A stretch of 63,879 bases of DNA, filler included, from Reticulomyxa filosa (Eukaryota; Protista; Foraminifera): assembly GCA_000512085.1 (NCBI GenBank). It is 14 parts of 14 records of this genome, joined end to end, with 100 filler letters (N's around TTAATTAATTAA, not from the genome) between each part and the next. Parts side by side here need not be neighbours in the genome. Positions count along the whole stretch, not along the records: positions 2,645 to 12,952 come from ASPP01005786.1; 13 more parts are not named here. One strand, written 5' to 3'. The position numbers and the translations under genes were made by a program. Below, piece after piece: positions 1-42,839 of the stretch (its first letter is position 1; the number at the start of each line of letters is the position of its first letter). The notes beneath the pieces were generated by a model. It saw only the letters and a program-made list of their open reading frames with translations. It ran no database searches and was not told the DNA's origin.

Positions 1-11
1 CAGAGCAAGTA

Positions 12-275
12 TTGTCTGTTGAATATTCACCATTTGTAATAAAGAATAGTATTGGTAATTCAAATGTGATATGTTCTGGATCAATGGATAATACAATTCG
101 TTTTTGGGATATTCGATCAAATAAGAATGAATTGTATATGATCAAAGGAGACGAAGAAGAAGATGGATTAATTTGTCTTAAATTTATTGTATTGAAAAAG
201 AAAACAAAGAATATTACATATGATCTAAATTTGTGCTATGGTTCATTCAAAGGTCCCATTCGTATTTGGGGATAA
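12..275 (+). CDS. C-terminal end of a WD40-repeat protein (5' part outside the window)
   Basis: ICSGSMDNTIRFWD and LCYGSFKGPIRIWG* are WD40 blades. Confidence 0.85.
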   Translation: MSVEYSPFVIKNSIGNSNVICSGSMDNTIRFWDIRSNKNELYMIKGDEEEDGLICLKFIVLKKKTKNITYDLNLCYGSFKGPIRIWG

Positions 276-729
276 TTTACTGTTTTGTCAAATGATAAAT
301 GAAGTGGTTTTTTTTGAAAAGTTTGATTAAAAGAAAAGTAAAGTAATATTAAACTTGTTGATTTGATTGAATGCAAGCATTGAAAGATATGTTTTATCTT
401 ACATTGTTGTTTAAAAAATTGAAAAAGCTGCGTTCAATGTTTTTGAAGAATTGAAAATCACAATAGTATCTAAATATCAAAATAAATCACATGTTCATCC
501 CCAAACATAAATTGGGTATTTGATTGAACAATCTTTTTTTAATTTTTTTTTTTCAATTGTTCAATTTCAGTAAGATGATATCATGTATTTACATGTTTAT
601 TTTCCTTTAAAATACATATTACAATTATGCTCAATCTGTTCGTTTTTTTTTATTTCTTCAAATTATTTTCAAATTTTGATAAAATTATCTTTGACATGGT
701 CGGAAGAATTTTACTTGATGTAACAGCAA

Positions 730-1360
730 ATGCAATAAATTCTGAGCTTGCATATGTTTCAATCGTGCATAGGCCAAAGCCACCTTACTTAATTGGTAAT
801 TGACATCGCATCCATTGTGATTGAGATAATGGCTGAGCTAGAATGACTCCCGTGCATTTCTTTATATTACAATCAAATTGATTAACCCATTGGTTATTGG
901 TATAACAAAGTTGGCTCTAAGTTGATAGTTAATTTTAGATAAGTTCAGAATTACGAAGTAAGAGGTGTATTTTCTGTATGCTGTAAGTTAATGATATTAT
1001 TAAATTGTTTATCAAAATCTTTTATATTACATTATTGATATAATTATAATCACCAATAGACAACTTACAATTGTTGTGTGAATGATATTATATATAATAT
1101 TATTATATTGAAAAGGTGATCGATGATCTTGAGACGCAAACCATTCGCATTTTGATAGATTAATTTCGATACCATGCAATTCTTTATATGTTTCAAGTGA
1201 TGATATTGCCTTCAATAAAACATTTGGATCCTCCGATGCAATAGTGAGGTCATCATGATATTCTGCATGATACAAGTTTGGTAAATTATTAAATGATAAA
1301 TTCATTTTTGCACATTTACAAGCAGTTTGTTGAACCAAGCAAGATCCTTGAACAGCTGCT
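730..1360 (-). mobile_element. Degenerate non-LTR retrotransposon reverse transcriptase, CRE/R2-like
   Basis: Minus strand reads AVQGSCL (QG motif, ~1345-1353), then YHDDLTI (1249-1260), then GIEINLSKCEW, and further on QWMRCQLPIK*GGFGL (LPxxxGGxGL motif, ~770-820). Stops and frameshifts are present. Confidence 0.7.
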
Positions 1361-1784
1361 ACCTTTACTAACTTAGTATCAACTTCAGCTACTTTAGCTC
1401 CTTTTCTTCCGAAGGGCTCAAACTGAACGTTTCCAAAACGATATTTTTTTTTTAGTTGGCTCAGTTAAACATTAACTCCATTTTGAGCATTCTGCAATTG
1501 CGCGATTGTTCTCAAACGAAAGTTGTTTTGAACAAAAAAGGTGTTTTCTTGGTGTTATTATTTTACAAAACATTTATTTTGAAACCACCAAAAAACACTC
1601 AGGTAAAACAAAAAAAATTTGAATAACAACCAAAGAGATAAAGAAAGAGATCAACCACTTTATTTTTAGGTTAATAATAAAGGAAAAGTGAAAATCAAAA
1701 CAAAAAAAAGCAAAAGATAGAATGTTTAATAACATTTCCCAAACAAACAGGAAGAAAAATAGAGATGATATAAAAAAAAAATCA

Positions 1785-2174
1785 TTACTCAGGTTCGATG
1801 GCTCCATAAATTTGTTTCAAAAACGTGAAAGTACTCCAACATCCAACAGCACCAAGCATTAAAAAGAATGCGTAAGAAATAGCTGTAGCGTAACTGAAAA
1901 AAAAGGCAGCTTGAAGCACACCATTCATATAGGATCGATAATGGTAATAAAACACATCGTATCCCAATATGTAAACTCTGGGACTGCTTGCAGTTGCAAA
2001 AGAGCGCTACCACTATCTCCAGTCATATCTTTGCAATTGAAAGTAGGTGGCTGCGATAGTAATTGCGACAGTGACGATCAACGACATGAAAAAGGCCAAA
2101 GACAAAATGCCAAACAATGTATACGTCTGATGTCCAAATATGGCTGTGAATAAAAAGTGTAATTCGATGTAGAT
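1785..2174 (-). pseudogene. TM9SF/nonaspanin (EMP70) C-terminal gene fragment with nonsense codons
   Basis: Translates as IYIELHFLFTAIFGHQTYTLFGIL...TYFQLQRYDWR*W*RSF...YYHYRSYMNGVLQAAFFFSY...AFFLMLGAVG...QIYGAIEPE. The conserved WWW is now TAG-TGG-TAG (2007-2015). Confidence 0.85.
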
Positions 2175-2461
2175 TTGAGTAAATGGATGAAGCTATTTGT
2201 CAAGTTATTGGAAATGCAATTGGATAATATTCATTGTAACAGTGTTAAAAATCATATATGCATATATATGTTTAGTTTGTTAGTGCTAAAATATCCATGG
2301 AGAAAATCAATTATCATCATAAGATATCGCTTTAGTCGTTCAGTTTTTTTGCAGCCTACTGTAGTTTAGTGTCAGTTTTTTCAAATATTTTTTTAAGTTT
2401 TTCCCAAAGTTATTGTTTGTTGTTAATTTTTTCGCCTTTATATATTTTACTTTAATTATCC

Positions 2462-2544
2462 ACCAATGCTTTCAATTGGATTCAGGTCTGGTGAATTAGG
2501 AGGAAAATTTATCAGTTCCATTATTTTCTTTAAACTAATCCATT
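2462..2544 (-). mobile_element. Tc1/mariner DDE transposase remnant
   Basis: Minus strand MELINFPPNSPDLNPIES contains the SPDLNPIE motif with the catalytic Glu; it is cut off at the contig end. Confidence 0.75.
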
Positions 2545-2644
2545 NNNNNNNNNNNNNNNNNNNNNNNNNNNNNNNNNNNNNNNNNNNNTTAATTAATTAA
2601 NNNNNNNNNNNNNNNNNNNNNNNNNNNNNNNNNNNNNNNNNNNN
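2545..2644. other. Artificial contig linker (first of 13; others at 12953-13052, 16255-16354, 17763-17862, 39973-40072, 42689-42788, 44570-44669, 45724-45823, 47232-47331, 49142-49241, 54362-54461, 58140-58239, 62762-62861)
   Basis: Identical 100-nt N-run/TTAATTAATTAA/N-run blocks with stops in all six frames; the flanking sequences are unrelated to each other. Confidence 0.98.
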
Positions 2645-3464
2645 GACGCTTTTTGAAGTTGTGCAAACATGGTGATATAATTTTAAAACAAACCCTTCAA
2701 TTGAACTAGAAAATTTTTGTGACGCAACTCTAATTTTTTGTTTGTATTAGATATCAAATAATTGTTCATGTAAAAAAATTAAGAGATTGGACAAGAAATT
2801 TTTTTGAAAATTACTAGAACAAAAGTATCACAATACATGTTTGCAAGCAAAAAAGAGTGAATCTATGTTTATTCAAATGCCATTATTTTCATTATCGTTT
2901 TTGTTATGTTTCTAATATCTTTGTCAATCTTAATTTACACTCGAACTGTTTTAATTTGACTGCATGAAGCGATTCAACCATTTACAATGTTAGTTCATGT
3001 CAAATTAGAAGTGATTACGAAGAAACTGAAGAATACCAGTATGTAACAAATGTAACAATGAATGAAATAAAATAAAAAAATTTATATCAATTTTTTATCA
3101 TTCATACATTTTTTTATTTCTTCTTTGCAATATTTTATCTTTTTAATATCGGCAAAGAAGATCTTAAGCTATTTATATTCGATTAATTGGCTTATTCAGA
3201 AACTGATAGAATTTTTTTGGGGGTAGTCTCTGGAAAAAAAAAATTACTAATGTCACTTGGACAAAATTTTGAAAGTATGAATAACTTATTAGGCATGACA
3301 ATTGAGAAGTTGAAGGCTTGTAGCGAAAATGGCATTGAGTTATATAAAAATGAACAAAAAAACTACAAAATGCAAAAAAAATAATTGTAATGATAATAAT
3401 ATAAAATAACAGCAACAATGATGGTGTAAATAAAAAAGACAATGTCAATATTAATATCAACGAC

Positions 3465-3558
3465 TATTCAAATGACAGTGACAATTCAAATGGCAATGTC
3501 AACTCAAATGACAATATCAATTCAAATGACAATGACAATTCAAATGACACTAATGACG
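3465..3558 (+). repeat. Imperfect ~18-nt tandem repeat (core AATTCAAATGAC) encoding an N/S/D-rich tract upstream of Rep
   Basis: Repeated TCAAATGACA(A/G)TGACAAT-like units; reads SNDSDNSNGNVNSNDNINSNDNDNSND. Confidence 0.7.
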
Positions 3559-3790
3559 GAAGTAAACAAGAAAGCCTTTATGTATTACAAAAAAAAAGGA
3601 GTATAGAAGACAAAAATACAATAGTCCTACCAGCTAAGAGGCTTAAAAAAATTACAAATGAAGAAAGTGATAATTATAGTTTCTTAGTAAGCAATAAATA
3701 ACAAATAGATGAAAGCATTAAACCAACTGAAGAATCGATTGGAGATAATACAAACGAAGAAAAAAAATGTGAAATAAGTCTAGACAAAAA

Positions 3791-4753
3791 AAAAGATTTA
3801 TTCAAGCAAAACAATTGTTCTTGACATATCTTCAATGTAATCTTTCGCCTGATGAAGCTATTGAATTGCTACAATAAAAAATTCCAATTGATGATTATTT
3901 AATTGCAGAAGAAAATCACTCAGATAGAGGTAAACATTTGCATTGTTATATTAAATGTAAAGAAAAAATCCAAATCTATTCACACTATAAACTGATTTAA
4001 ATGGATATCCTGGCAATTATCAAAGCTTTCGTAGTATATTGTCATTAAAAAATATTGTACAAAAGATAAAAATTATATAACAAATATAAAAAACTTTAAA
4101 ATAATGAAGCCATCTATAGAAGCGGTACAAATGGTAATAAAAGGTGATATTGATTGAGCAATTAATATAATAACAAATGATCCATCTTTGGCAAAAGATT
4201 ATTTAAGATATAGTTTGCGTATGGAACAAAGTATAAAGAAATTATCAAAAAGTTGTGATTTTGAAATAAAAAAAATTATAAATTTAAAAATGTATATGGG
4301 GTATCAAACTGGAATCGTTCAAAATATGTATTGTTGTTGCAAGGAAAAACAAAAACAGGCAAAACGCAATTTGCGTTACACTCTTTAACAAGCCACTGTT
4401 GGTAAGACATATTGGCCAATTAAAAAAACTTGATAATTCTTATGATGCATTGTATTTGATGACATGAACTTTTCAAGTTGGACGCGCCAAGAACAAATAC
4501 ATATAGTTGACGTAGAAGAAAAACAACAATCAATGTAAAATATACTTACGCTGAATTAAAAAAAGGATTACCACGAATCTTCACTAGCAATGATGTCATT
4601 TTTTCAAAAGATCAATCAATATTAAGAAGGATACGCTATATTCCTATAAATGAAGATATAAGGGATATCAGTGACAACGAATCAAGTGACAACAACAGTT
4701 TTGAAGTACTGATGAAATTTTTGAGCAAAAAAATTAAAAAATCTTCTAAATGA
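3791..4753 (+). mobile_element. rep: Endogenous geminivirus-like CRESS-DNA Rep (HUH endonuclease + SF3 helicase), pseudogenised
   Basis: Motifs in the expected order across frameshifts: KRFIQAKQLFLTYLQC (motif I, FLTY 3818-3829), EENHSDRGKHLHCY (motif II, HLH 3935-3943), DLNGYPGNYQS, YCTKD (motif III, 4053-4067), GKTKTGKT (Walker A, 4343-4366), IVFDD (Walker B, 4449-4463), PRIFTSN (motif C, 4571-4591), ILRR (Arg finger, 4619-4630), and a TGA stop at 4751-4753. Confidence 0.9.
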
Positions 4754-4859
4754 TTGTATGATTGTAAGATTCGAATTGGTGATGTTACATTTTCACAAAT
4801 AAATAAATAATTTGAAATTAATCCGTTGGATTGAGACAATAACTAAATAGCTTGACTTT

Positions 4860-5200
4860 GACTCCTTAATTCAAACATGTGAAAACAGAATCTATTTTGT
4901 TTCATTCAATTCCATTGCAATTCCTTTAAATAAATCTCTGAATGTATCACAATAATATCCATTTATTTTTTGAAATCTGTCAATCAAATATTGAAAAGTA
5001 TCATTGAAATGTTTTCCATTTAGATCAACTGCAATTGTCCCAATTAATTTCACATCATCTACGCACATCTGCATCATCATTTTTATCAGTGAACATATCC
5101 ATTGAAGAGTTAAAAGCTTTGTTCAATTGTTGTTTATTACATTTATATGAAATTGTTTTAATTAATTGAATGCACTTGATACGAATATTTTGATGTTTAT
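4860..5200 (-). pseudogene. Degenerate HEAT/ARM-like helical repeat fragment
   Basis: Repeating units CIQLIKTISYKCNKQQLNKAFNSSMD, LIGTIAVDLNGKHFNDTFQYLIDRF and LFKGIAMELNETK; frameshifted. Confidence 0.45.
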
Positions 5201-5414
5201 TTTTTTACGGTAAATTTGTGGGTTAATCTGAAAAAATTTTCAAACAAAATAATTTTTTGTTTTATCTTATCAAATATTGTGCCACATCTGCATCCAGAAA
5301 TTGTATTGCTTATATATTCATCTTTGATCGGGAACTTTCGTCAAGTGTTATTATGATATCTACGCAACAAATATAAAAAATGAACTTAAGCATTTGTTCT
5401 GTCTTACGGACATA

Positions 5415-5560
5415 CTATTGTACACCATTGTACCAACAAAAAACATAGTCAAATTCAGATAACACAATGACAATTGTCAGTCCTTTTCCATTGAATCTAT
5501 CACGAAACGCTTTTGCACCAAAATTATGATCACTCTTACGGTATAATAATTTCACTTTAC
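5415..5560 (-). pseudogene. TLDc-domain remnant
   Basis: KVKLLYRKSDHNFGAKAFRDRFNGKGLTIVIVLSEFDYVFCWY matches the TLDc pattern LLYRxSxxGFxxxxFHxxCDxKGPT...FGG. Confidence 0.6.
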
Positions 5561-6249
5561 ATTAGTTTCGTAGTAGTAACGATTCTAAAGCTTTTATTTC
5601 TTTAGCTTTGATAATATAGTAATCAGTGAAATTATCATTAAGACATACAATATAATTATATGAAAATGATAAATTTTATTCTTACAATATATTTATCACG
5701 ACACTTGACTTTATTTTCTTTTCGTGTTAACTTTTGTATATAATAATCATTGTATACACTAGCTCTAGTTCTATTTTTTAAAAAACTAAAATAAAAGATT
5801 CAATTATTTTTTTTACTTCGCTTCAATTGAAAGTTGAACACAATCTAATCATCTTCATGTAAAAGCGTAACAATTTTTTATTTTATCATTTTGATTATTA
5901 GGTAATCTAATACAAATTTTATGTATGTCCTTAAAATCACTTTTCTGCAAATAGATTTCATTATACAAAATGAAACTCAGGATTCAGAAAGCGTTATTTG
6001 TCAAGTCCTTAATTTCATTTTTCTACATACAAAAGCAAAATTGATTATAAATAAATATTATTTAAAAAAATGAAAATGATTTTTTGTTTTAAAAAAATTT
6101 CTTTTTGAAAATTTAAAAAAAGATTTAAAGAAACTGCTCATGATTTGATGATGATGGCATTCAGTGGCATTTGGCAACCATTCCCAAATATTTATTTTAG
6201 CTATAGTAATATAGCCAAAATAAATAGATACTGACAACATAATCAACAA

Positions 6250-7446
6250 TATAATAACATCAAACTATTCCCACAATAGTTGCTTCTTGGAGAATAGTGG
6301 GAATTTTGGACAATCTATATAAATAAAAAAAACACATACACATACATTCAATAATATTTATATAATATAACATACTTTTGACGGTGGCTTTTTCTTCAAT
6401 CTTGCGTGTCTTGCCTCCTGTCCAATCTATACACACATACATAATCAAATAATACAATATTTTATTTAAAAAAAAATATATATATATTAACATATTGGTG
6501 ATGGGATTTCATCATCTTAATAAATTTCCTTTTTTCTTCTTCTTTCTTCCCCATTTTCATCCTATTCCTCCAATTTTCTTCAATCATCAACGCCATCTTC
6601 ACCGTCATTGCTCTTTTATTGTCGTCGTCGTCGACGTCGCTCAAATCTATATTATACATTTACATACACATTACACACATACATAATTCAATTTATGTAT
6701 ATAAAAAAATATATATACATAAAAAAAAATAAAATAAAAATATGTATATTTATATATAGTACAATTATCAAATTTTTTTTTTACATACTTGGCTGATGTA
6801 GCTGTGACTTTGGCTTTGGCTTTAGCTGGGGCTGGGTCCGTAGCTGTGATTGTGTCTTTGTCTATCGCAGCAGTTGTTCTTGTTGTCGTTGTTCTCGTTG
6901 TCGCAGTTCTTGCAGCAGTTGTTCTTGTTGTTGCCTTTCTTGCTGAGTTTTCTCGCTGTCGTTGTTCTTGCTTCAGCTTTTCTCGTTGCTGACTTTCTAG
7001 TTGTCGCCATTCTTGATAAAGCTGTTCTCGTTGTTGCCTTTCTCGTTGTTGTTGTTCTATCTGTTGTTGTTTTTTTGTTCTTACTGTTGCATTTGTTGCA
7101 GTTGCAGTTCCAATTGTTGTCGTTGTTGTTGCAATTGCCGTTCTAGTTCCGCTTGTTCTTGGCCTTGTAGCCATTGTATCGACTCAGATGACAGTGGCTG
7201 TTGCTGTTGTTCCAATGCTATTCTATAATCTTCTGCGAATTGTTGTTGTCGTTGTTCCCGCTCTATCGCTGCTGATAGAAATTCTATTGGTTCAAGCATT
7301 TGAGATAATATATAGTCTTCGTGGTCCTCTTTCGTCCTTTCTATTTCTACCAAATCCTTGAATTTTGGACTTTTCTTGATCCGGCCTTTGTTATCTGTTT
7401 GGAGTAATTGTGTGAAAGACATAGTGTTTTTTTCAAAGAAATACAT
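6250..7446 (-). CDS. Hypothetical Q/E/R-rich coiled-coil protein, multi-exon and apparently frameshifted
   Basis: Q-rich ORFs 7081-7446 and 6671-7174 lie in different frames, followed by short downstream exons separated by GT-AG introns with (TA)n tracts. Confidence 0.35.
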
Positions 7447-7649
7447 GACAAAAGATCATACCTTTGTTGTTGGTCATATCTACTACTTGTTCTTTTTTTT
7501 TTCTTCAAAAATGGTTTATTCGGTTATTGCCGAAATGCAGCCTTTTTTAAAGAAGAATTCACTTTATCTCTGAATTTTTTTGATATATGTGTGTACTCGC
7601 AGTGTGGAAGTTGTGTTTTTCAGTCTCTGCCTTACTTTTTCACAATATC

Positions 7650-7800
7650 TACACTGTCCAAGCTTTACTAGTTACACACTGTATCACTCCCTACACAGTA
7701 CACGGTCTACTCTCAATTCATTATGTACACTCTCTACAGTGTGTACGCTCTCTACTCCCAATTCATTGTGTACACTATATACTCTCAATTCATTGTGTTC
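7650..7800 (+). repeat. Imperfect tandem repeat (TACTCTCAATTCATTGTG / TACACT units)
   Basis: Three copies of a TACTC(T/C)CAATTCATT(A/G)TGT unit, interspersed with TACAC repeats. Confidence 0.6.
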
Positions 7801-8069
7801 TTAATAAAGTAATGGTTATGCAATTTGTTATGTGAAAAAATCTGGTCCATGAAGAAAATTGATTGCGAAAAAAAATCAGGTATAATTTTTTTTATCAAAA
7901 AAGAATAAAATATGTTTGTTATTCATGTCTTTTTTTTTTTTTTTTTTTGCGAAAAAAAAAGCGATTCATAATTTTTTGGTCAAAAAAAAAAGAAAAAAAA
8001 AGCGACTAATAATTTTTTGATAAAAAAAAAGGGGGCTTATTTACTTAAAACAAAAAAAAAAAGAATAAC

Positions 8070-9349
8070 CATGAAGGCGTCGAGGAAAACACAGCAGAAG
8101 ACGAAGACGACGAAAGTAACAATGATTCGACCTCGGAGTCAAACACAAAAGCGGTCAATTGGGAGCCATCCTCTGAAGCACGACCACGAACAATGGAGTG
8201 ACAATAAGTTGACTGATCGTTGTGTGCTGCTTGCAACGACTCGAATCGACGCGAGGGAAAGGCACTCTGTTTTGCTCATCGATTGTTTACTTCCACACCG
8301 TTACGTGTCACTCTATATTTTATATTCATATATACATATATATATAAATCCCCTTTTTTTTTTGAACAAAGTTTAAACCCAAGTAACGTTGTCTGATACA
8401 AAGATTTCTGCTGCTCACCGTGTGCAATCGAATCGACGACGCGCAAGGCGATTCGAAGAGATTGCAAGAAATCTCGCAAATGTTGAAATTGTTAAGACAC
8501 GATAGTTGTTTGTTTGTTGTGAGGATTTAAAATAAAGACATGTGTTTTTTTTTAAAAAAAAAAAGCATGGAAGAGTGGGCCGAGTTACTGTTAGAAATAA
8601 GACTCCCCGCACACAGCGTGGCGAGAAATGGACTAAACCAGTTGATCTCGCGCATGCTGCAGCTGTTTCCACGTGACAAGTCTAGTGCGACGCACAAGTC
8701 GATCTTTGAAGCGACGCAAAGACTGTTAATTTACGTATCGCAATCACAACTTGCATCACGTTTGTCAAAGTTGGTCCATGCCCTTGGTTCGACGTGCGAC
8801 GCAGCCCGAGTTGGGATCCCTTTCGCATATACTACTCCGTCGCACCATGTCATTGTCTGTGTCAATATTTACCAACCCATCTCCGGTGTCCAAGCTGACG
8901 TTCAGACGAAAGAGTGCAAGATGATCGCGAGGCAGCTGACACTTATGATGTTCAAGCAGATAAAGGCTCATTCGTCCGACCGAGTTGCTTCGAAAAGTTT
9001 GTTTGTGTGTGTATATATATATTTGGCGTTTGTCATGTCAATAACAAATTCGTCGTTATTCATTGCGTATAAACAAAGGAAAGGACCGGCGATGACGCGT
9101 ACAAAAAATACTCCGAATATCGTGGCGCTGCGTGAGTTGGGTGAAAGTATCGCTATTTGGGAGAATTGGAAGTATGCAGCCAAAAGTTCCCTCGACGAAA
9201 AGTCGTCATTGAAAAAATGCTTCAAATCGGAGTGGAAATGGCTGAGTTTCAAAATCAATATGGACAGATTCAAATCTTTGCCGCTTTGGAAAGTCTTTCC
9301 ATGCTTAAATTCTCCACCGTCTGGGCTGTTTCGTCTTTTTTTTTTTTAA
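8070..9349 (+). CDS. Hypothetical multi-exon gene or pseudogene, no family recognised
   Basis: GC-richer exon-like blocks (e.g. within 8540-9349) separated by AT-rich introns; at least one in-frame stop near 8384. Confidence 0.35.
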
Positions 9350-9749
9350 ATGTAAAATCTAGCAATCAATCAATGAATTGGACACATATATATGTACACA
9401 TAAGAAAATCGAAGTCGAACATCTACAGTTTGCCCGGTTTCGATAAGAAAATCGAGGGCTGTTAGACAATCTGGAGTGCATGTCTTTGTCTTGTTCTCAT
9501 TGTTTCAAAAATCGCTCAACAGAACATATATTTGCAAAATAAATGTGAAATGGAAATGATCGCAACTCGTTGAACCAAATTGCGAAACCTCCAAGCTTTT
9601 TTTTTTTTTGCCCTCTTTTTTTTTGCCCCCCTTTTTTTTTGGTACGTGTAAAAAAAAATGTTATGATTTGATAAATTTTGTTTGAAAAAAAAAAAGATGA
9701 AAGTGCGGGTGCGACAAGTGTAACATATTACACGTATTGAATACAAGCA

Positions 9750-10480
9750 ATACGTATTTGAAAGGCGTGATAATGGAATCGAACCCACTTAGCGTGCCAT
9801 TACGAGATTCGTTGACTTGGGGAGACATGCCAAACATGTACAAGATGACACTGGGCTGTATGACAGATCGCAATGCATGAAAAGCGTGGCCAATGCCGAA
9901 CTTCTGTTGCTGGCCCAACAAGCTGCTATTGACGCGTCTGCAGTGACAGCCAAAATATTTCAAAGATGTTTTGTTGATATTACTTTTTTTTTTTTCTCTT
10001 TCCCCCCCCGAGAATTAACTCTGTTTTAAACAACCATATACACGCAGTCAATGTATGCTAATATGTAACGTTCATTATATATGTATATATGTATGTATAT
10101 AGGTTCATTAAAATGTATATACGCATACCCACCAAGGGGAAAGAGGCAAACATGCACTGCACGCACATCTGCACCCCTCAACGTATACACCAAATATGCT
10201 TTTATACAGTTATTTATGCCATTCACTCCAACTATTGGAATCGGTGTGTTTTCCAAACAATTGTACTTGGCATTTCAAAGTGGCAAGTTTCTGAATGTAC
10301 CGATAATTATCGGAACAAATCGCAATGAATCAGACATTGCGTACTTGTCCACTCCCCATCGATTGTAACGTTGAATACTTGCCTTTCTTGGAAGTCACGT
10401 ACGGAGACACTAGTGCACATAAGATTGCCCAATCTTATCAAGTCCCTCAAACAATTGGCTTAGTGTCCACGTCCCCACAG
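9750..10480 (+). pseudogene. Type-B carboxylesterase/lipase fragment
   Basis: GVIMESNPLSVPLRD, followed after an intron by LFMPFTPTIG...AFQSGKFLNVPIIIGTNRNES. This matches the COesterase AIxES and VPxxxGxNxxE motifs. Frameshifted, and the N-terminal catalytic Ser region is not seen. Confidence 0.6.
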
Positions 10481-11258
10481 ACAGTATTTTCTTGTGCTTA
10501 TCCAGAAATCTCACTTATAACAACACAAAGCAAGACCACACAAAATTCGCTATTAATAGTATTTTTTTTGGTTTTTCTTGATAAGTTTTTTAATATTAGA
10601 AAGTTATTTTGGTGTATTATTAACAATAATAATAAATAATGATAAGATAATGTAGCACATTTCAACATTGAAAGCATTGATGGAAGGCTTTATTTATTTA
10701 TCTGTGGAGAGGGAATTCGTTTGCTTTGTTTATTTTTCTCAAATTTAATTTACAAGTTTTGGTATCAGAACGCACTGAAGATATTATATTTTGCTGTTTC
10801 TCGCTTTTATTGAAAGAAAACAATATCATAACCTGCTGAAACAATGAGAAGGAGTCGAAATTCTCTGATTAATAAAAAAGTTTTGATTACTTGCAAACAC
10901 GAGTTAAGAAAAAAGAAACTTGGAATTGAAGTTTTCAAAGGCTCTTTCCGTTTGATGAAGCATGTGAAAATACCAACTTTGACTGAGAATAAGATCACAC
11001 CACTTTGTATGAGTGTTTTTGACAGCAGAGAAATCATTATAATATTAAACTTGGAAAAGTTTTGTTTTGGATTTCCAACTTGTAGTGTCTTTACTTTTAA
11101 TTGCTTGGATTCAAATAACACGATTCTTCGATATGCATAATCAAATACAAAGCTTTTTTTAAGCCCAACTAAAAAGACGCACACTTGAGTAAAAAAGAAA
11201 TTGAATTTAAACGTGTGCCCCCTCCCGTAAATTGGTGTCATTTATATACTTTTTTGAA

Positions 11259-12501
11259 AATGGTGGATAATAGTGTCCCTCCAAGTGCGCCTCGACCATC
11301 AGAGAGCGGTGCTGCACGAACGGAAGGAACAGGAGAAAGACGCGAAAGCCATTCTTTTGGTACGGTACCACAATATGAGACACCACAACGAGCGCGACAG
11401 CAGACCAGCCCTATCAAGTCGAAGATCCGCACGCTCAGCCTACACAGAAATCGAAAGCAGATGTGATTAGGACTTATGCGGATGGGGTTAAATACTTTGG
11501 TCCACGAAGCAAACGTATTCTGAGCATGGCATGTGCGCTTTTGCTGTATGCCTTGATGTCATTGGCGTATTGGTACGACACTGAAGATCTGAAGAAGGTC
11601 GACGATGCGGACGGTACGTCTTTTGTGGACGAGTACAATTGCAAAGGCACAGGTTTATTGTCGATATTATTCGCATGTTTGGCCTGCATATTCCTGCAAG
11701 TGTCCAAGTGTGCTAACACCGCGAAATCGGAATACGTGCTGATCAATTTGATTATCTTGGGGGTGTTTTCATTTGGAGGCTTCTTGTTTTTGGTAGGTGG
11801 TTTTGTTATTGCTGGGAGTTACGGCAAGCTCAGTTGAGTTTTAAAAAAAAAAAATTAGAAAATGTAAAAAGAAGGGGGGGGAGTAAAGTAGTTTTAAAAA
11901 AATGTGAACTTTTTTTTTAATTATAAAAAAAAAAAAGGATTTCCCCCCCCCCTTCTTTCTCCTTGTTCACGGTGAATCCAAAGATACCGACCATAATGTT
12001 GATATCCGCTCGTATCAGACAATGCATGTATCAGATGGATTTTTTATATGTCTGTTAAGCGTCGCCCTTGGTATGGACGTGTGGCGCAATTATTTGGCCA
12101 TTTCGATTCGCTTCCGAAGTGTGATAGTGGTGAACACCATCTATTTGTTTTCCGGACTGTTGTATTTCTTTGCCTTTGCCACGTTCAGCGACGATGTTGC
12201 CACCAACAACACACGTGCCGTCGCAGCTGGATTCTTCTTTGTTTTGCTTGGAGGTAGCCTGTTGTATGCCTTGGAGTTTATTGATATTTGCTGCAAATGG
12301 TTGGGTAAAATCCAGTTGTATGCAATGAAAGCACGCTTGAAAATTCTTCTCATTCTCATCATTGCCTTGTATCTCTTTGGCACCTTCCTCGTAGACTGTG
12401 GCTTGTGGGGCATTGTTGACAAGTCGAACGCCACTTCAAAAGCCAATGCCGTGGTTGTTGGAATGTCCTTTTTGTTTTCTGTCAATGTTAAAATTGATTA
12501 A
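11259..12501 (+). CDS. Hypothetical multi-pass membrane protein (multi-exon)
   Basis: ORFs 11463-11837 and 12022-12501 contain several hydrophobic helices; there is a hydrophilic N-terminus from MVDNSVPP, and an intron at ~11833-11938. Confidence 0.55.
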
Positions 12502-13079
12502 AAGGGAAGATAAGAGGATGGGGAGGGGGATGGACGAATAGTATGCAAAAAAAAAAAAATATATATATATATAAATCAAATACAAATGCAAATACAAATA
12601 TAAAACAAAACATAAACAATGTCGAAAAATTAAGAAATTCTTGCGAGCAAAGTTCGAACCAACTGTCAACAAAAATTGACGTAGCAAATGAAACGGTTTG
12701 ATAAAATGAACAACAAATTGTTGAACGATTTAAACAATGAGGACAAAAAATCGCAAAAAGAATTGAATGCGTTGGCAAAAGCCCAACAAAATTGCGACGA
12801 GAAAAAAAAGCAGGTGATTGCCGCTGAATAATCATTAAACGCAGAACTTCAGCGATTACAATAATACACTAAAAAGCATATCGTTCCAAAGTTTTTTTTG
12901 CCAAGTTTGTGGAAAAGTTTTGTGATAGTGTGGAAAAGCATACTCCGATTGANNNNNNNNNNNNNNNNNNNNNNNNNNNNNNNNNNNNNNNNNNNNTTAA
13001 TTAATTAANNNNNNNNNNNNNNNNNNNNNNNNNNNNNNNNNNNNNNNNNNNNAAAAAAAAAAAAAAATGTATATTACAG

Positions 13080-17762: not shown

Positions 17763-20074
17763 NNNNNNNNNNNNNNNNNNNNNNNNNNNNNNNNNNNNNN
17801 NNNNNNTTAATTAATTAANNNNNNNNNNNNNNNNNNNNNNNNNNNNNNNNNNNNNNNNNNNNCAGTGAAAGAAAGTTTCTTGTTATAGATTTGACAAAGA
17901 GTGCTGCTAATTTTTTGTTTTCAACTTCTGAAATTATATCATATTGTACAAGTTTGAAGTATTTTGTTCATATATTTGTTCTTAGTCCGGATCAACAACA
18001 AAACATATCATGTATTAAATATCAATGGCAGAAACGTTGGTCAGATAGTGCTTCATCTACACTATTATATTATTTCAAATTTCAAAGAGCATAGACTTCA
18101 AGTATATGTACAGTTCCAATCACATTTATCACACTCTTATAAAAAATTATTTTTTAAAGAATATAAACATTGCAACTGATAAAATTTAAACTGCTTTTTT
18201 AAATTCTCAATTTGTAAAAACTTAAAATTTTTTCATTTTGTAAGTATTCTATTTCCAATTGCAAAGTTTGAATTTTTAAAACTAAAGTAATTTGGCAATT
18301 TATTACTTTTACTTGTAAATTTTTCCTTTTGTGAAAATCAATATATTATTACACTTTTTATTAGCATTACAAAACTTTGACATACACATAATAGCTGTAG
18401 GCCACATTTCCAAAGCTATCAGTTTCTAATATTTTAAAAAAATCTTCTTTGATCAATGCAACAGAGAAACTTAGAAAACAGTCTTACTTTCTTTGAGCAT
18501 ACTTATTAACATTTATTTTTCAAAAAATTGAAAAGTTTTTTTAGAAGAATAATCGCACTTACCAGTTATTTTATGTTTTAAACCTCTGAGGAATTTGTTC
18601 ATACTTTTTGAGACAAGGGAAGCAAAAACTAAAAAAAGGTCGAAAAGGAGAAGTGCATTTATTGCCAAGGTTAAAAAAATTTGTTCCTTAATCCCATGTT
18701 CTCATTAGATTCTGGATCAATCAGTTGTGCTGATAACAAGTATTTTTAATTATTGTTTTAACTTTTATTTTCTTTTTGTGAGAATGAACGGAGACATTAT
18801 TTTCATGAACGGGGACAGGCCAAGCTCCTTTTTTTCTTATCACAATGGCGCCAATCAAAAATGCAAGCAAAACCGGCCAGAGCACTGGTGGAATGAAGGT
18901 CATCATGAGGATACAAATAGAAAGAAAAGAAGCTTTTCACAACTATCGGCAGATGACAAAGAGATTGAACAAACAAGCAACGGGCCATGCCATCAATTGA
19001 AACGGCATCGTTCCAATATAGCCAACCCAAAAAGTTTTTACCTCGAGGGCAACACGAATCAAAATTTCATTGGAGTGAATGATGCATCACAAGTTTTTTT
19101 TTATTCTTTTTTTTTAAAAGGGGTTGTTTGTGTCTTTTTTAAACGTAGATCATCTCTTTTTTTTTTTGATTGGGTGCGATTAGCTTCCAAAAAAAGTTAG
19201 CAATAAAACATCTTATCACACTAACGAAAGTTATAATCACTATCAAAAGTTACTCGAAGAAACAAATATGCGGAGTACTTCATACACTGGAGAATGCTTG
19301 AACACAAGATTTCGATTGCAGCCTTTTGAAATGAGCACAAAAAACAGCACCTCCAATGATCAGTGGTAAGTTTAAAAGTAGGGCCTTGTTTTCTATTTTT
19401 TTTAATTTATTTTGATGGATGTGTGAAATAGGAAGGAAAATATTGAACAAGCATTGGAAAAAGCGCGAAAAGACAACACTTTTGAACGCTTTAAAAGATG
19501 CAACAATGGACTGGGACAACAAGTATTAGCTGCAAAAATGCGCCAGCAAATAGAGAAACAACAGCCGGATAAAAGAATGAAAAGTTGATACATGTTGGCT
19601 CGAACAAATAAACAACGTGATCTTTGATTTCATCAAAAAATAAAATTTTTGAAATGTTTGCTGTTTTTTTTTATGTGTGTGTGTTCTCTTGTTTTATTTT
19701 TTAGATCTTATTTATTTTGGAGTTTTTGTTTTGTTGTTGTTCCTTCAGATTGTCAAACCGCAAAAATGTTGCTTTGAGAAAAGAATTACTGTTTGTTTTT
19801 GTTCAAACGAAGCGTAAATCAAATTAATTGTTATTATTCTATTTGCTCAGTTACAATAAGCGCATTTTGTTGAATTTGAAATTGCTCATTTTCAAATTAA
19901 AAAAATGTAATTACAATTTCCGGAGGGGAGGAATTGAAATACATTGACTGAAAGGAAAACAACATGCCGCATGAAAGACAAGACGTGTTGAACAAAAAAG
20001 TTTAGTAAAACAAGAAAAGAGGGGGTCGCTGGAAGGTCCATCTTTTTAGGAATTGTCAGGCTTTGTCATAGGTA

Positions 20075-23000
20075 TTGATATTCTACTCTGCAGAAATGAC
20101 ACAAAATGAGTCATATGAAGAAAAAGACACTTGCAATTGGGAAGAATTTGTGCGAAAAAATGTGGATAGAGGGCGACGCGTTCCCACAGAGCCCAATGAA
20201 GACTTGATACTCCAACATGTGGATACGGATTTGTATGTGGGATTTGTGCCAGGCTATGATGGCGAAAGAGACACAAGACTTCATCGTCCCGTGATCCGTA
20301 TATATGGAATAGACAAGCAAGGGCAGTCAGTGCTGATACACATATATGGGTTTTGTCCGTACTTTTTTGTGCAGTCATGGGGATTTGATGAAAGCCAGGC
20401 GGAGGAAATGTGCGAGCGACTGCAAAAAGCGTTGGAGTTTGCACTGTCGAGTGAAAAATCGAGTTCGAAATATGACGTATATGTTCCGAAGGTGTGCACC
20501 GTGGAAAAGCAGTCTCTTTGGGGTTGTCAATTTGGTCAGAACACAACGTTTCTGAAGATATACGTAACGGTACCAACCTTGGTCCCGACGTGTCGAGGCA
20601 TCTTGCAAGTAGGAGTGGACTTGGGTCCAGGAATCGGATTGCAATCGTTTGACACGTATGAGTCGAATGTACCATTTTTATTGCGTTATATGATCGATGC
20701 GGATTTGTATGGAAGCGCATGGTTTGAGGTAGAAGCATCACAGTACTCAGTAGTACCAAAGAATGAAATGGTCAGTCATTGTTCGATGGAAGTGATTGTC
20801 GCTTGGACCGATGTCAAGCCCCTTTCGAAAAAGTTGTCATTGCACTGGGATGTCGACAGTATTGCGCCATTGCGGCTGTTGTCATTTGATATCGAATGTC
20901 AATGTTCCCAAGGATTTCCCGAAGCCACCAACGATTCCGACAAAGTGATTCAGATTGCCAATGTATTGAAAATCGAAGGGCAAAAAGACTTTTGTTATCA
21001 AACAGTCTTTTGTTTGGGGTCATGTGCACCCATCCCCGGCTGTCATGTCCGAAGCTTTGAGACGGAGCGAGACTTGCTTCTTGCATGGGTACAGTTTGTT
21101 CAGAAGTGCGACCCGGACATCCTTACCGGGTACAATATTGTCAACTTCGATTTGCCCTATTTGTTGAATCGTGCAGCGCATATGGGTATTGCCGATTTCC
21201 CTTACTTGGGACGTATCCGCACCAGCAAGGCTCGAATCAAAGATTCCATGTTTTCGAGTCGCGCCTACGGCACTAGCGCGAGTAAAGATATCACCATCGA
21301 GGGTCGCATTCAAATGGATTTGTTCCCGCTCATTCGTCGGGAACACCGACTGCGCTCTTACAGCTTGAACAATGTCGCCTTTCATTTCCTGCAACAGAGC
21401 AAGGAAGATGTCCACTACTCGATTATCGGCGATTTGCAAAATGGAAATGACCAAACGCGAAGGCGATTGGCCGTGTATTGTCTCAAAGACGCAATGCTGC
21501 CCGTTCGCTTGAACGAACAGCTGATGATTTTGATCAACCAAATTGAAATGGCACGTGTCACCGGTGTTCCCATTACCTTCCTTATCACACGAGGACAGCA
21601 GATCAAAGTATTGTCCCAAATTTATCGCAAAGCCAAAGTGAAAGGATATTTGATTCCATACCGCAAAATGACAGGAGATGAAGAGACTTTTGACGGAGCC
21701 ATTGTAATTCCGCCACAAAGGGGATATTATGTATCCCCGATTACCACCTTGGACTTTGCCAGCTTGTATCCTAGCATTATGATGGCGCATAACTTGTGCT
21801 ATACTACAATGGCCAATCGTCATGACGCTTTGACCAAACTGAACGATGACCAATCCAGGTACACCCTCACGCCAACTGGAAATTACTTTGTCAAGCCTTG
21901 TGTCCAAAAAGGGCTTTTACCCGAAATTTTGGAAGAATTGCTGGCTGCACGCGCTGCCACCAAAAAAGCGATGAAAGAAACCACGGATCCATCCAAGCAA
22001 TCAGTGTTGAACGGACGACAACTGGCTTTGAAGATTACTGCCAATTCTGTTTACGGATTCACTGGAGCAACTGTTGGCTCATTACCATGCTTTGCTATTA
22101 GCTCCAGTGTCACCGGCTTTGGTCGGGAGATGATTGAACGTGCCAAAGAAATTGTCGAAAGTGAATTTAATATGTCTAAGGGCTATGAACATAATGCACA
22201 AGTTATATACGGAGATACTGATTCGGTCATGGTCAAATTTGGAACAAATGAAATGAAAACTGCAATGGAATTGGGGCGCAAGGCAGCGGAATTAGTGACT
22301 TCACATTTTCAAAAGCCTATTCGCCTTGAGTTTGAAAAAGTGTATATGCCTTATCTTTTGATGAATAAAAAAAGATATGCCGGCATGTTATGGACAAAGA
22401 GTGACAAATGGGATTACATGGACGCAAAAGGAATTGAAACAGTTCGTAGAGACAATTGTGAGTTGGTGAAAACAGTAGTGCAAAAAGTATTGGATTACAT
22501 TTTAATTGAAAAGGATGTGCTAAAAGCGGAACAATTTACCAAATCAATCATTTCAAAACTGTTACAAAACAAAATTGACATGTCTCTGTTGGTCATCACC
22601 AAAGCACTTGGAAAAATTGATGAATACAAAGTAAAAACTGCTCACGTAGAATTAGTTCAAAGAATGAGAAAACGTGACAGTGCAACTGCTCCCAAAGTTG
22701 GTGATCGAGTGGCTTATGTCATTATTAAAGGCCCAAAAAATGCCAAAGCTTATGAACGAGTGGAAGATCCGTTGTATGCACTTGAAAATGGTATCCCGTT
22801 GGACAGTGAGTACTATTTGACACACCAATTGAAAGAACCTTTGAAAAGAATATTCGAACCTATACTAGGAGAAAAAATCAATTCATTGTTCAGTGGGCGA
22901 CATACCCGTGCCATAACTGTCTCAACTAGTAGAGTTGGTGCGATGAGTAAATTCACTGTCGTCAGGAAAACATGTGCTGGATGCAAAGTCAATTGGAGTG

Positions 23001-23245
23001 GTGTCGGAAGTGTTTGTGATCACTGCAAAGGAAAAGAACCTCAATTGTACATGAAACAAATGGCATTGGTCCGTTTGCACGAACAAAACTTCAACAGTCT
23101 TTGGACACAATGTCAACGATGTCAAGGCAGTCTGACACAAGAAGTCTTGTGCAGCAATAGAGATTGTCCTATTTTCTACAGACGAACAAAAGTTAAAAAG
23201 GATTTAGAGAATGCTCAACGAGTTTTAGCTCAATTTTCTTTGTAG
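20075..23245 (+). CDS. POLD1: DNA polymerase delta catalytic subunit (first ATG at 20096; possible short upstream exon MPHERQDVLNKK near 19964)
   Basis: ExoI SFDIEC, ExoII GYNIVNFDLPYL, ExoIII YCLKDA; polymerase motifs DFASLYPSIMMAHNLCY, KITANSVYGFTG and YGDTDS; C-terminal CysA (CAGC...CDHC) and CysB (CQRC...CSNRDCPIFY). Confidence 0.98.
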   Translation: MIFYSAEMTQNESYEEKDTCNWEEFVRKNVDRGRRVPTEPNEDLILQHVDTDLYVGFVPGYDGERDTRLHRPVIRIYGIDKQGQSVLIHIYGFCPYFFVQSWGFDESQAEEMCERLQKALEFALSSEKSSSKYDVYVPKVCTVEKQSLWGCQFGQNTTFLKIYVTVPTLVPTCRGILQVGVDLGPGIGLQSFDTYESNVPFLLRYMIDADLYGSAWFEVEASQYSVVPKNEMVSHCSMEVIVAWTDVKPLSKKLSLHWDVDSIAPLRLLSFDIECQCSQGFPEATNDSDKVIQIANVLKIEGQKDFCYQTVFCLGSCAPIPGCHVRSFETERDLLLAWVQFVQKCDPDILTGYNIVNFDLPYLLNRAAHMGIADFPYLGRIRTSKARIKDSMFSSRAYGTSASKDITIEGRIQMDLFPLIRREHRLRSYSLNNVAFHFLQQSKEDVHYSIIGDLQNGNDQTRRRLAVYCLKDAMLPVRLNEQLMILINQIEMARVTGVPITFLITRGQQIKVLSQIYRKAKVKGYLIPYRKMTGDEETFDGAIVIPPQRGYYVSPITTLDFASLYPSIMMAHNLCYTTMANRHDALTKLNDDQSRYTLTPTGNYFVKPCVQKGLLPEILEELLAARAATKKAMKETTDPSKQSVLNGRQLALKITANSVYGFTGATVGSLPCFAISSSVTGFGREMIERAKEIVESEFNMSKGYEHNAQVIYGDTDSVMVKFGTNEMKTAMELGRKAAELVTSHFQKPIRLEFEKVYMPYLLMNKKRYAGMLWTKSDKWDYMDAKGIETVRRDNCELVKTVVQKVLDYILIEKDVLKAEQFTKSIISKLLQNKIDMSLLVITKALGKIDEYKVKTAHVELVQRMRKRDSATAPKVGDRVAYVIIKGPKNAKAYERVEDPLYALENGIPLDSEYYLTHQLKEPLKRIFEPILGEKINSLFSGRHTRAITVSTSRVGAMSKFTVVRKTCAGCKVNWSGVGSVCDHCKGKEPQLYMKQMALVRLHEQNFNSLWTQCQRCQGSLTQEVLCSNRDCPIFYRRTKVKKDLENAQRVLAQFSL

Positions 23246-39635: not shown

Positions 39636-40261
39636 TGCCACTAGTGAACTATCAAATGCCAGTATGCATGGTGGCATTGGAAATGGAATTGGACATAGTA
39701 TTGATATGCCTGATACAAGCAACGACAATCCAAAATGACGTCGAATAATGACATGGACGTCGACACAAATGGCACAAGGCGAATAGCCATAAAACGAAAG
39801 ACGGACTAACGGATGATATTGCAAAGAAAGCAAAGTTGTTACAAAGCTCAAGTATGCGAAGAAAAAAAGATTGATGATTGATTCAAATGAGGATTGGAAA
39901 TCGATCAAGAGATGAAATTAACATCGCGAATACTAATATGCAAGCAGATCAATGATCAGCAGTCTATTGGTGNNNNNNNNNNNNNNNNNNNNNNNNNNNN
40001 NNNNNNNNNNNNNNNNTTAATTAATTAANNNNNNNNNNNNNNNNNNNNNNNNNNNNNNNNNNNNNNNNNNNNCAACACTGAAGGTCCGCAAGGCGTCGCA
40101 TCAGGTCTCGGGCCAAACACTGCAGTTTTGACCTGATGCATCGTGTTGCGCACATATGCGCGATCTGGCGCGCATTCCTCAAATGGGTTAGGATTCAACT
40201 GGATCAAGATTCATTCCGCTTGTACGGTGTGAACTGCATCTAGCAACGAAATGAGGCATTT

Positions 40262-41644
40262 ATGCCCGCTATCCTTAGCAAATTCCGAGTTGTTGGACTT
40301 CATGGTTCAAAGAATTATAGCTTGTCGTTGAGCGACAATTCATTGATCATCGTGGGAGAGAACGGGTCGGGAAAAACTACTGTACTAAGAATGATGTTCT
40401 TTTTTCTTTCTGGACGATGGCAGGCTCTTGTCCAATTTCAGTTTGACTTCGTTGAGGCCGAGATTGATGGGAAGTCATATAAGGCGACCCGCGATGAAAT
40501 AAGAAGGTCATTTAAGAGTGGTGGGGGTTCAATATTAAGAAGATACCCGTTACAGGCTAGGATGAGGATTCGGGAAATAGTCGAATCTGGGAATCTGGAC
40601 GGGTTGACGGACGAAGTAGTAAGGCTTGGAGCAAGATATGGGGTGCCATCTCAAATGATTGAGCGCGATATTTTGCGCCTGATATCAGATGAGGTGGGTG
40701 TTGTTGATGACCTTCGGCCCATAAAACAAGTACAAGAAGCTATGCGTAGTGTTCAAGATGCGATGGGCGCGCAAATTTTATACCTTCCCACCTACAGGCG
40801 GATCGAACGAGAGTTGAGTAGCATTTTTGAAGGCTTGGATTCCAATGAGCTTGATAGACTAAGGCAAAAGCAACTTGAGGGTGGGCAATCGTATGTCGAG
40901 CTTGTTGAGTTTGGAATGAAGGACGTTCAGATCGCAGTGGACCGTTCAGTTACTAGTATTCGCGACTTCGCGCGCGAAAATCTTAACAAATTAACGCTAA
41001 GCTATTTAAGTGACGTCGTAAATCAGACGTACCTTCACGTAGAGTCTGGAAATATTCATACGATGAAGAACGAAGCCGTGCGCACAATTATTGAGAGAAT
41101 TGATGACTCGATACTTAGCGGCCCAAGCAAGGATCGGCTGTCAATGATAATTGGGTCACTGTCATCGAAAACGGGCGATCTAACCGACCACGAGAAGCTC
41201 GTATATCATTATTTTTCGACGATACTTCGCTTTCAAGAATCCCTCAAAGATCGCGAGAAGCCCATCTCAGCCTTCTGTGAGATATGTAATTCTTATATGC
41301 GAGACAAAAATTTCCTGTACAACAGTTCGACATTTAGTTTCTCAATTGCGGCAAAAGCATCAAAAGATGATGAAAAAATTAGCCTTGCGGATCTGTCGTC
41401 AGGGGAGAAGCAAATTGTTTCTCTATTTAGTCACTTATATCTTTCAGGTATTTCAAAATTCTTTGTGCTAATTGATGAGCCCGAGCTGTCCCTCTCAGTT
41501 CCATGGCAAAGGTCATTGCTGCCTGATGTAAGGGCGGGGGAATTCTGCTCTGGTGTGGTGGCAGTCACTCACTCGCCGTTTGTGTATGATAATGACCTTA
41601 GGAAATATGCTCACTCTCTTGATGAATTTGTGGTTTATAAATGA
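40262..41644 (+). CDS. ariA: Bacterial ABC-type ATPase (AAA_15/AAA_21), PARIS AriA-like sensor
   Basis: Walker A GENGSGKTT, YLPTYRR, ABC signature LSSGEKQ, Walker B/D-loop LIDEPELSL and H-loop VTHSP; GAGG RBS-like site at 40253-40256; no introns. Confidence 0.85.
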   Translation: MPAILSKFRVVGLHGSKNYSLSLSDNSLIIVGENGSGKTTVLRMMFFFLSGRWQALVQFQFDFVEAEIDGKSYKATRDEIRRSFKSGGGSILRRYPLQARMRIREIVESGNLDGLTDEVVRLGARYGVPSQMIERDILRLISDEVGVVDDLRPIKQVQEAMRSVQDAMGAQILYLPTYRRIERELSSIFEGLDSNELDRLRQKQLEGGQSYVELVEFGMKDVQIAVDRSVTSIRDFARENLNKLTLSYLSDVVNQTYLHVESGNIHTMKNEAVRTIIERIDDSILSGPSKDRLSMIIGSLSSKTGDLTDHEKLVYHYFSTILRFQESLKDREKPISAFCEICNSYMRDKNFLYNSSTFSFSIAAKASKDDEKISLADLSSGEKQIVSLFSHLYLSGISKFFVLIDEPELSLSVPWQRSLLPDVRAGEFCSGVVAVTHSPFVYDNDLRKYAHSLDEFVVYK

Positions 41645-42639: not shown

Positions 42640-42839
42640 AGCCCCCTACCCCACAATCTCCTTCAGCACCGACGCCCCGATCGTGTACNNNNNNNNNNNN
42701 NNNNNNNNNNNNNNNNNNNNNNNNNNNNNNNNTTAATTAATTAANNNNNNNNNNNNNNNNNNNNNNNNNNNNNNNNNNNNNNNNNNNNACAGCTTTTACG
42801 TTGGAAAGCACAAGTGACAAGTGTAAAAACATATACATA

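Follow-up and report, generated by a model that had tools for sequence, protein, structure and literature searches.

What kind of gene is a broken Rep, with a long low-complexity N terminus and no neighboring capsid gene, in the genome of a foraminifer? The gene lies in a 63,879-nucleotide stretch of Reticulomyxa filosa DNA (assembly GCA_000512085.1), which is the whole stretch that we analyzed and which we call the window. It is joined from 14 parts of 14 records, and the part that bears the gene (positions 2,645 to 12,952) comes from ASPP01005786.1. The 13 gaps between parts (e.g., 2545-2644) consist of two 44-N runs flanking a 12-base linker (TTAATTAATTAA in the gap that was read) and are not biology. 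A first-pass annotation proposed that the gene descends from a ~530-aa host-style protein, either the transposase of an undescribed capsid-less mobile element or a co-opted gene. We found that it belongs to a known Rep lineage (CRESSV6, or "P. pulchra-like") and is dead. With moderate confidence, we trace the locus to a capsid-less, plasmid-like circle whose Rep carried a long extension and that was captured in chromosomes several times.

Translated with stops as X, positions 3794-4750 matched Pfam Gemini_AL1 (E = 1.6e-8) and geminivirus Rep structures. The gene has what defines a CRESS-type Rep, namely, HUH motifs I to III with one catalytic Tyr and a C-terminal SF3 helicase with all four motifs (Table 1). 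In CRESS replicons, the HUH domain uses the Tyr of motif III to nick the origin, the DNA is unwound by the SF3 hexamer, and the host polymerase copies the circle. Frameshift-aware alignment to the intact relative ETO15557 placed 6 frameshifts and 2 stops in the Rep core, and with the extension included, the gene carries at least 10 lesions. The first-pass annotation had mentioned breaks in the extension only; those are there, but the core itself is also broken. The HLH, YCTK, Walker A, Walker B, motif C, and Arg finger motifs are all kept in the broken copy. We rejected the reading of TGA as Trp, as TGA aligns to Ser and TAA stops are present too. Homopolymer sequencing error was also rejected as the source of the breaks: near 4 of the 6 frameshifts no run exceeds 3, and in-frame stops occur as well. 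In the alignment, 201 of 300 codons (67%) were identical to those of ETO15557, with 78 of 90 identical at family-conserved columns versus 123 of 210 elsewhere. Because identity concentrates at the family-conserved columns, purifying selection must have acted during most of the divergence of the two copies, and decay came later. The copy in the window is dead and therefore is not itself a domesticated gene, so the proposal of a co-opted gene does not hold for this copy.

Table 1. Features of the Rep locus, in window coordinates
Feature	Position	Strand	Remarks
Gap	2545..2644	.	~685 bp of contiguous DNA between gap and presumed start
Likely first ~25 codons of extension	3329..3404	+	ATG 3329, in another frame than 3405 onward; weak, tentative assignment
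N/D/S/K/E-rich low-complexity N-terminal extension, 130 codons	3405..3794	+	One stop, TAA 3699-3701
18-bp tandem repeat, 5.1 copies	3458..3549	+	Encodes Asn/Asp tract
Basic patches KKRS (3591-3602) and PAKRLKK (3630-3650)	3591..3650	+	Predicted NLS-like by pattern alone
Frame break, extension to Rep core	A-run ~3786-3794	+	
HUH endonuclease domain (Gemini_AL1)	3794..4064	+	PF00799, E = 1.6e-8; 1 stop, 2 frameshifts
HUH motifs	Motif I 3818-3838; HLH 3935-3943; YCTK 4053-4064	+	
Central helical region, predicted oligomerization domain	4065..4270	+	1 stop, 1 frameshift at end
SF3 helicase	4271..4640	+	3 frameshifts; sister model matches SF3 helicase folds
SF3 motifs	Walker A 4343-4366; Walker B 4449-4463; motif C 4580-4591; Arg finger 4625-4630	+	
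Acidic C-terminal tail and stop	4664..4753	+	Acidic stretch 4664-4699; TGA 4751-4753
Host TLDc-domain pseudogene fragment	5412..5615	-	PF07534, E = 2e-4, below curated cutoff

The TLDc pseudogene fragment, ~660 bp downstream of the Rep stop, is the outer right limit of the element. Elsewhere in the window, positions 1-2544, upstream of the gap, hold gene relics (WD40 and EMP70 fragments, the latter with an E value of 3.6e-20) together with reverse transcriptase (E = 3.6e-6) and DDE_3 (E = 0.0014) fragments. An unbroken 1057-codon ORF at 20072-23245 (+), with GC above that of its surroundings, is presumably the catalytic subunit of DNA polymerase delta, as judged from its motifs. Between the gaps at 39973-40072 and 42689-42788, a pair of genes (40244-42639, +) that overlap, lack introns, and look bacterial encode an AAA_21/AAA_15 ATPase (E = 8e-16) and a DUF4435 protein (E = 6e-19). 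They sit on their own contig with ~43% GC and reflect either a mis-scaffolded bacterial contig or horizontal transfer.

Upstream of motif I, the N/D-rich peptide with basic patches that the first-pass annotation quoted does read at 3405-3794 (+) with a single stop, and the one frameshift that separates it from the Rep frame lies where it was placed, in the A-run at ~3786-3794. We found 1 stop in 130 codons versus the 11.1 expected per frame from dinucleotide shuffles (P = 0.0005; minimum over 3 frames, 2000 shuffles). With the tandem repeat removed (81 codons left), the depletion gave a P value of 0.006. Of the control stretches, the one upstream gave a P value of 0.012 and the one downstream 0.89. 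The extension is shorter here than the ~200 aa first claimed. It has 130 codons, or ~155 if ATG 3329 is the start, a figure that takes the start from the continuing N/D composition and requires one further break near 3401-3407. That ATG is the first after a stop, and the N/D composition continues across the junction with 3405; 3329..3404 had no significant match to the N terminus of ETO15557. An ancestral protein of ~530 aa is likewise too long for this copy, whose sequence allows about 450 to 475 aa. ORF 3187-3384, suggested as a further part of the extension, found no support: 3150-3404 is not stop depleted (P = 0.76), the 4791-bp flank contains 13 stop-free stretches of at least 65 codons, and the ORF does not match the first 30 residues of ETO15557 (P = 0.75).

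Two features that had been read as host-style traits also occur in Reps with short N termini. NLS-like patches precede motif I in such Reps (K[KR]x[KR] in 16 of the 90 whose leads are 12 to 70 residues long). The acidic tail is present at 4664-4699, but it is shared with short environmental Reps. We therefore rejected both features as marks of a host-style protein.

The best database match to the Rep core was ETO15557.1 (P0004), a 516-aa "rep" of R. filosa on a 2232-bp contig. The proposal presupposed more than a single copy, and this was found: ETO15557 is an intact sister, and RFI_31564 (P0255), which is broken, is a third copy. The three Reticulomyxa-type copies are 67, 60, and 67% alike over ~115 shared residues. 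In ETO15557, the one scoreable sister copy, the extension is in frame. This gene model, which is known from the protein alone and has a Met 34 residues before the core, has ~200 residues before motif I, with D/S/Q-rich 4-residue repeats, basic patches, and an acidic stretch in that order. AlphaFold2 gave a pLDDT of 36 to 51 over residues 1-180 and mostly above 85 over 201-490. The predicted structure has a confident HUH domain, a helical middle (helices 308-354), and an SF3 core, and its folds match geminivirus Rep domains (TM by target, 0.71 to 0.83) and SF3 helicases. The long Rep that the first-pass annotation predicted is thus borne out by an intact sister gene model.

In the copy in the window and in ETO15557 alike, an acidic repeat is followed by a KKRS patch, an acidic stretch, and then motif I. 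Their extensions aligned with a score of 83 (P about 0.04 by shuffles), and 6 unrelated low-complexity host segments scored 59 to 75. At the sequence level, homology between the two extensions is marginal. This marginal homology, together with the N/D-rich tracts that are common in the host ORFs of the window, is what one would see if a short Rep had inserted into an unrelated low-complexity host pseudogene. However, the tract lies on the same strand as the Rep, abuts motif I, and resembles the Rep in A-skew, GC (0.274 versus 0.271), and lesion density (1.9 versus 2.6 per 100 codons), and the sister has the shared order of elements. We regard insertion into an unrelated tract as barely credible; the extension belongs to the Rep, as the first-pass annotation held. 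An Atlas search with the ETO15557 extension gave no usable match, and no second copy was found within the window.

We placed the gene in two trees, both of which were midpoint rooted and lacked the red-algal plasmid Reps; we claim no direction of transfer from them. In a FastTree analysis of 111 Reps, the copy in the window and ETO15557 formed a pair with support of 1.0, and the ETO15557 branch was short (0.13). In a fast IQ-TREE run with SH-aLRT on 63 selected Reps, namely the nearest 50 and a further 13, the three Reticulomyxa-type copies grouped with the environmental Rep P0099 (SH-aLRT, 98.8), the position of which differs between the two trees. A larger clade (SH-aLRT, 86.7) comprised the Reticulomyxa-type group, an environmental subclade, and the Smittium Reps.

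The intact sister raises the question of whether ETO15557 is a co-opted host gene and the copy in the window its decayed duplicate. An intact reading frame, a short branch, and a low-complexity extension in the host's style would fit this. Its record, a 2232-bp contig, does not establish a chromosomal context, and two of the three copies are broken. Moreover, the nicking and unwinding motifs are all kept, and protein searches found no orthologue of ETO15557 in another eukaryote. We therefore consider domestication very unlikely.

The lineage is already in print, so the claim of a previously undescribed system falls. Kazlauskas et al. 2019 (PMC6668415) listed ETO15557, 8 Smittium accessions, and AAF36422-4, the Reps of capsid-less plasmids found in Pyropia pulchra, a red alga, as a "P. 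pulchra-like" cluster ("PpulchraPlasmids") that emerges from within CRESSV6. In Lee et al. 2016 (PMC4814812), two nuclear genes of R. filosa, including RFI_31564, were put with red-algal plasmid replicases, and a figure legend in the Replitron preprint repeats the grouping. We found that the gene in the window groups with the listed members ETO15557, OLY79389, and OLY79699. Like the cluster, it has HUH followed by SF3 with no capsid linked, and it is 67% identical to the listed ETO15557, its sister in every tree; it differs in being broken. The portion of the 2019 paper available to us does not discuss a long extension in this cluster, and the alignment rows of its supplement begin a few residues before motif I (PMC6668415).

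CRESSV6 viruses (unclassified Cressdnaviricota near geminiviruses and genomoviruses) share the Rep motifs and fold of this gene, and the Reps of their circular two-gene genomes are 35 to 39% identical to it. In contrast to these viruses, the copy in the window is chromosomal and has neither a capsid gene nor a nonamer hairpin. The extension spans 130 to 200 aa (copy in the window and sister); across 59 circular genomes, the lead before motif I has a median of 10 residues and does not exceed 80. The linked jelly-roll capsid gene and the nonanucleotide stem-loop origin of a complete CRESS-DNA virus were thus both absent from our searches, in agreement with what the first-pass annotation had seen by eye. 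Six-frame Pfam scans found no capsid family in the flanks, and 494 non-Rep ORFs from 154 loci had no match in 1-8000. The best E value was 0.016 with 16 profiles and 0.2 with 198 candidate second ORFs of circular loci. These searches covered ~685 bp upstream to the gap and ~660 bp downstream to the TLDc fragment, and a decayed, divergent capsid gene could escape them. A weak match to viral coat P2_N at 4892-5122 (E = 0.15) was unsupported by the ORF and profile searches and was rejected. Positions 2645-9000 contain no NANTATTAC-type nonamer and only weak AT-only hairpins.

The relatives that could be fetched (35 to 39% identity) are mostly 2- to 3.5-kb circles with an antisense second ORF and TAATATTAC-type hairpins. 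Pfam coat matches were found in 4 of 10 tested at an E value of ≤1e-5, with a weak match in a fifth. The nearest such locus (L155) is circular and 2060 bp long; its antisense ORF of 294 aa has a basic N-terminal arm and no Pfam match. Among 180 loci, 118 are circular, most of them from a collection selected as viruses, and 114 of these have a non-Rep ORF of at least 180 aa. Searches of viral contigs with P0004, P0099, and P0007 found no relatives (loci returned were all at least 2 kb, so shorter circles may be missing from that set), and prokaryote genomes and PLSDB plasmids gave no match.

The 4 circular loci without a large second ORF are L080, L109, L145, and L151. L080 (noted at 430-480 and 837-1919) is a unit of 1978 bp whose only gene is a Rep; it has a TAGTATTAC hairpin and end tandem repeats, and it sits on a long branch among the Smittium Reps, and its terminal overlap falls in a tandem repeat. 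L145 (1397-bp unit) and L109 (1598-bp unit) are Rep-only circles in which an open Rep frame requires TGA to encode Trp (each has 2 TGA and lacks TGG). They form one clade with P0082 (SH-aLRT, 99) and are likely mitochondrial or mollicute plasmids of CRESSV6 type.

The closest environmental Reps look different. Nine of them are 44 to 53% identical and 321 to 362 aa long, with an acidic tail and without an extension. We saw no free replicon with the extension, because all close environmental Reps lack it. In the close environmental subclade, 7 of 9 Reps leave 579 to 713 bp of contig outside the Rep; the minimum room in 109 two-gene circles (second ORF of at least 180 aa, full-length Rep) was 746 bp. 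P0009 and P0253 (321-aa Reps) are each on a 1556-bp contig and P0011 (324 aa) is on one of 1565 bp, matching sizes that are as expected for complete circles with a fixed noncoding part. Judged from contig sizes alone, and short contigs can be fragments, this hints at Rep-only circles among the close environmental relatives. P0099, P0007, and P0008 leave 1099, 1093, and 910 bp, respectively, which is enough for a capsid gene.

These data bear on whether the locus is an ordinary endogenous viral element, left by several integrations of a capsid-bearing, CRESSV6-type foraminiferal virus whose capsid gene was lost or decayed and whose lineage had the extension. The sister groups, 2- to 3.5-kb circles with capsid-type ORFs and nonamer hairpins, are consistent with this, as are the capsid room in the nearest relative, P0099, and the long N termini of a few Reps on 2.1- to 3.1-kb contigs (P0129, P0137, P0171, and P0082). 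There is also a precedent: Rep-only elements of Entamoeba and Giardia were later traced to capsid-bearing viruses (Kinsella et al. 2020; PMC7493932), which counts against a capsid-less source. However, we found no trace of a capsid in the 685 bp upstream or in the 660 bp downstream before the host pseudogene. The short contigs of 7 of 9 close relatives and the published grouping with capsid-less plasmids (PMC6668415) also argue against a virus. We consider a viral relic improbable, though the foremost of the alternatives. The place of ETO15557 in a published cluster with red-algal plasmid Reps, the lack of a capsid signal in the flanks, and the short environmental contigs make a capsid-less circle the likely source.

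To place the extension in the family, we measured the lead before motif I in 209 Reps with a matched N-terminal core. The median was 3 residues, and 11 Reps had a lead of at least 100: 2 with tandem HUH repeats, 4 named eukaryote gene models (ETO15557 and the Smittium proteins OLY79389, OLY79699, and PVV01280), and 5 on other contigs (P0082, P0129, P0137, P0171, and P0020). Among 7 named eukaryote models, 2 start inside the core and PVV03168 has a short N terminus; 4 of the 5 scoreable models have an extension of at least 120 aa. Sources were examined for 22 proteins, some of them chosen for long N termini, and eukaryotic gene callers can lengthen N termini. We treat the enrichment in eukaryote models as a lead and not a test, because the sample of 22 was partly chosen for this trait. 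The Smittium extensions are S/P rich and have no likeness by eye to the Reticulomyxa type; that of Smittium megazygosporum PVV01280 (P0251), whose record ends at helicase motif C, consists of about five 14-residue Ser/Pro-rich repeats. Separately, P0126 and P0247 (967 aa) have seven tandem geminivirus-type HUH domains without a helicase match and belong to a cluster of 6 proteins on contigs of up to 42.7 kb.

Could these copies belong to a family of rolling-circle transposons with a CRESS-type HUH and SF3 transposase, present in Reticulomyxa and separately in Smittium, with the extension as an adaptation to the host nucleus? Liu et al. 2011 suggested that Reps, once integrated, could multiply as selfish elements, and they reported an example with TIRs (PMC3198968). 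The genes are multicopy in both hosts (3 Reticulomyxa-type copies; 8 published Smittium accessions [PMC6668415] plus 3 more). Extensions of at least 120 aa in 4 of 5 scoreable eukaryote models, against the median of 3 residues, would fit such a family, as would the reverse transcriptase and DDE fragments on the neighboring contig of the window. In contrast, the copies are 60 to 67% alike, protein searches gave no hint of a recent burst, and the window contains no terminal hairpin, terminal repeat, or second copy. The Smittium extensions do not resemble those of Reticulomyxa, and the sample of long N termini was partly selected. We consider a transposon family rather unlikely. Also doubtful, to a similar degree, is a twofold origin in which capsid-less, CRESSV6-derived minicircles turned into chromosomal rolling-circle transposons once in foraminifera and once in Smittium, keeping SF3 and growing disordered tails independently; ETO15557 would then be an intact transposase.

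Known mobile elements differ from the gene in specific ways. Replitrons (Craig 2023; PMC10288648) likewise encode a eukaryotic genomic Y1 HUH Rep with variable termini that are predicted to be disordered. However, they are without a helicase, their motifs are mostly HUQ and GYxxK, they bear short terminal direct repeats, and they have been shown to transpose. The gene here has SF3, HLH, and YCTK, and we found no termini. Helitrons share rolling-circle HUH chemistry in a eukaryotic genome, but their Rep is of the Y2 type and is joined to an SF1B helicase (PMC10288648), in contrast to Y1 and SF3 here. The geminivirus-like transposon of Tuber melanosporum, like this lineage, is represented by multicopy CRESS-type Rep remnants in a eukaryote. 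It has copies that are >95% identical, 37-bp TIRs, and separate transposase ORFs (PMC3198968), none of which we saw.

We thus favor capture of a capsid-less, plasmid-like circle. Such a circle may have lived in the nucleus of a Reticulomyxa-like host and would have diversified under selection into lineages 60 to 67% alike. It would have been captured in chromosomes several times, by Rep-mediated joining or by repair. Repeat slippage likely lengthened the extension, which may serve nuclear import and flexible binding rather than catalysis. Alphasatellite Reps are of the nanovirus type and not CRESSV6. Alphasatellites and the Rep-only "circular molecules" described by Rosario et al. 2018 (PMC6186406) are capsid-less HUH and SF3 circles, as the proposed source replicon would be.

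What appears to be unremarked is the long disordered N terminus that recurs in genome-resident copies of two unrelated eukaryotes; we found no comment on it in the literature within our coverage, which leaves out most subscription journals. A source in the form of a Rep-only circle would mean that foraminifera harbor a plasmid-like replicon in the nucleus, and it would give an orphan clade of 1.5- to 1.7-kb environmental contigs a candidate type of host. The long disordered N termini gained repeatedly, in Reticulomyxa and Smittium, would mark the change of a free circle into a chromosomal element. Should shared termini exist, this would be an SF3-helicase rolling-circle transposon, an idea raised by Liu et al. 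2011 (PMC3198968). If the twofold transposon origin is true, the lineage would be a third class of eukaryotic HUH transposon beside Helitrons and Replitrons, in mid-transition from a plasmid.
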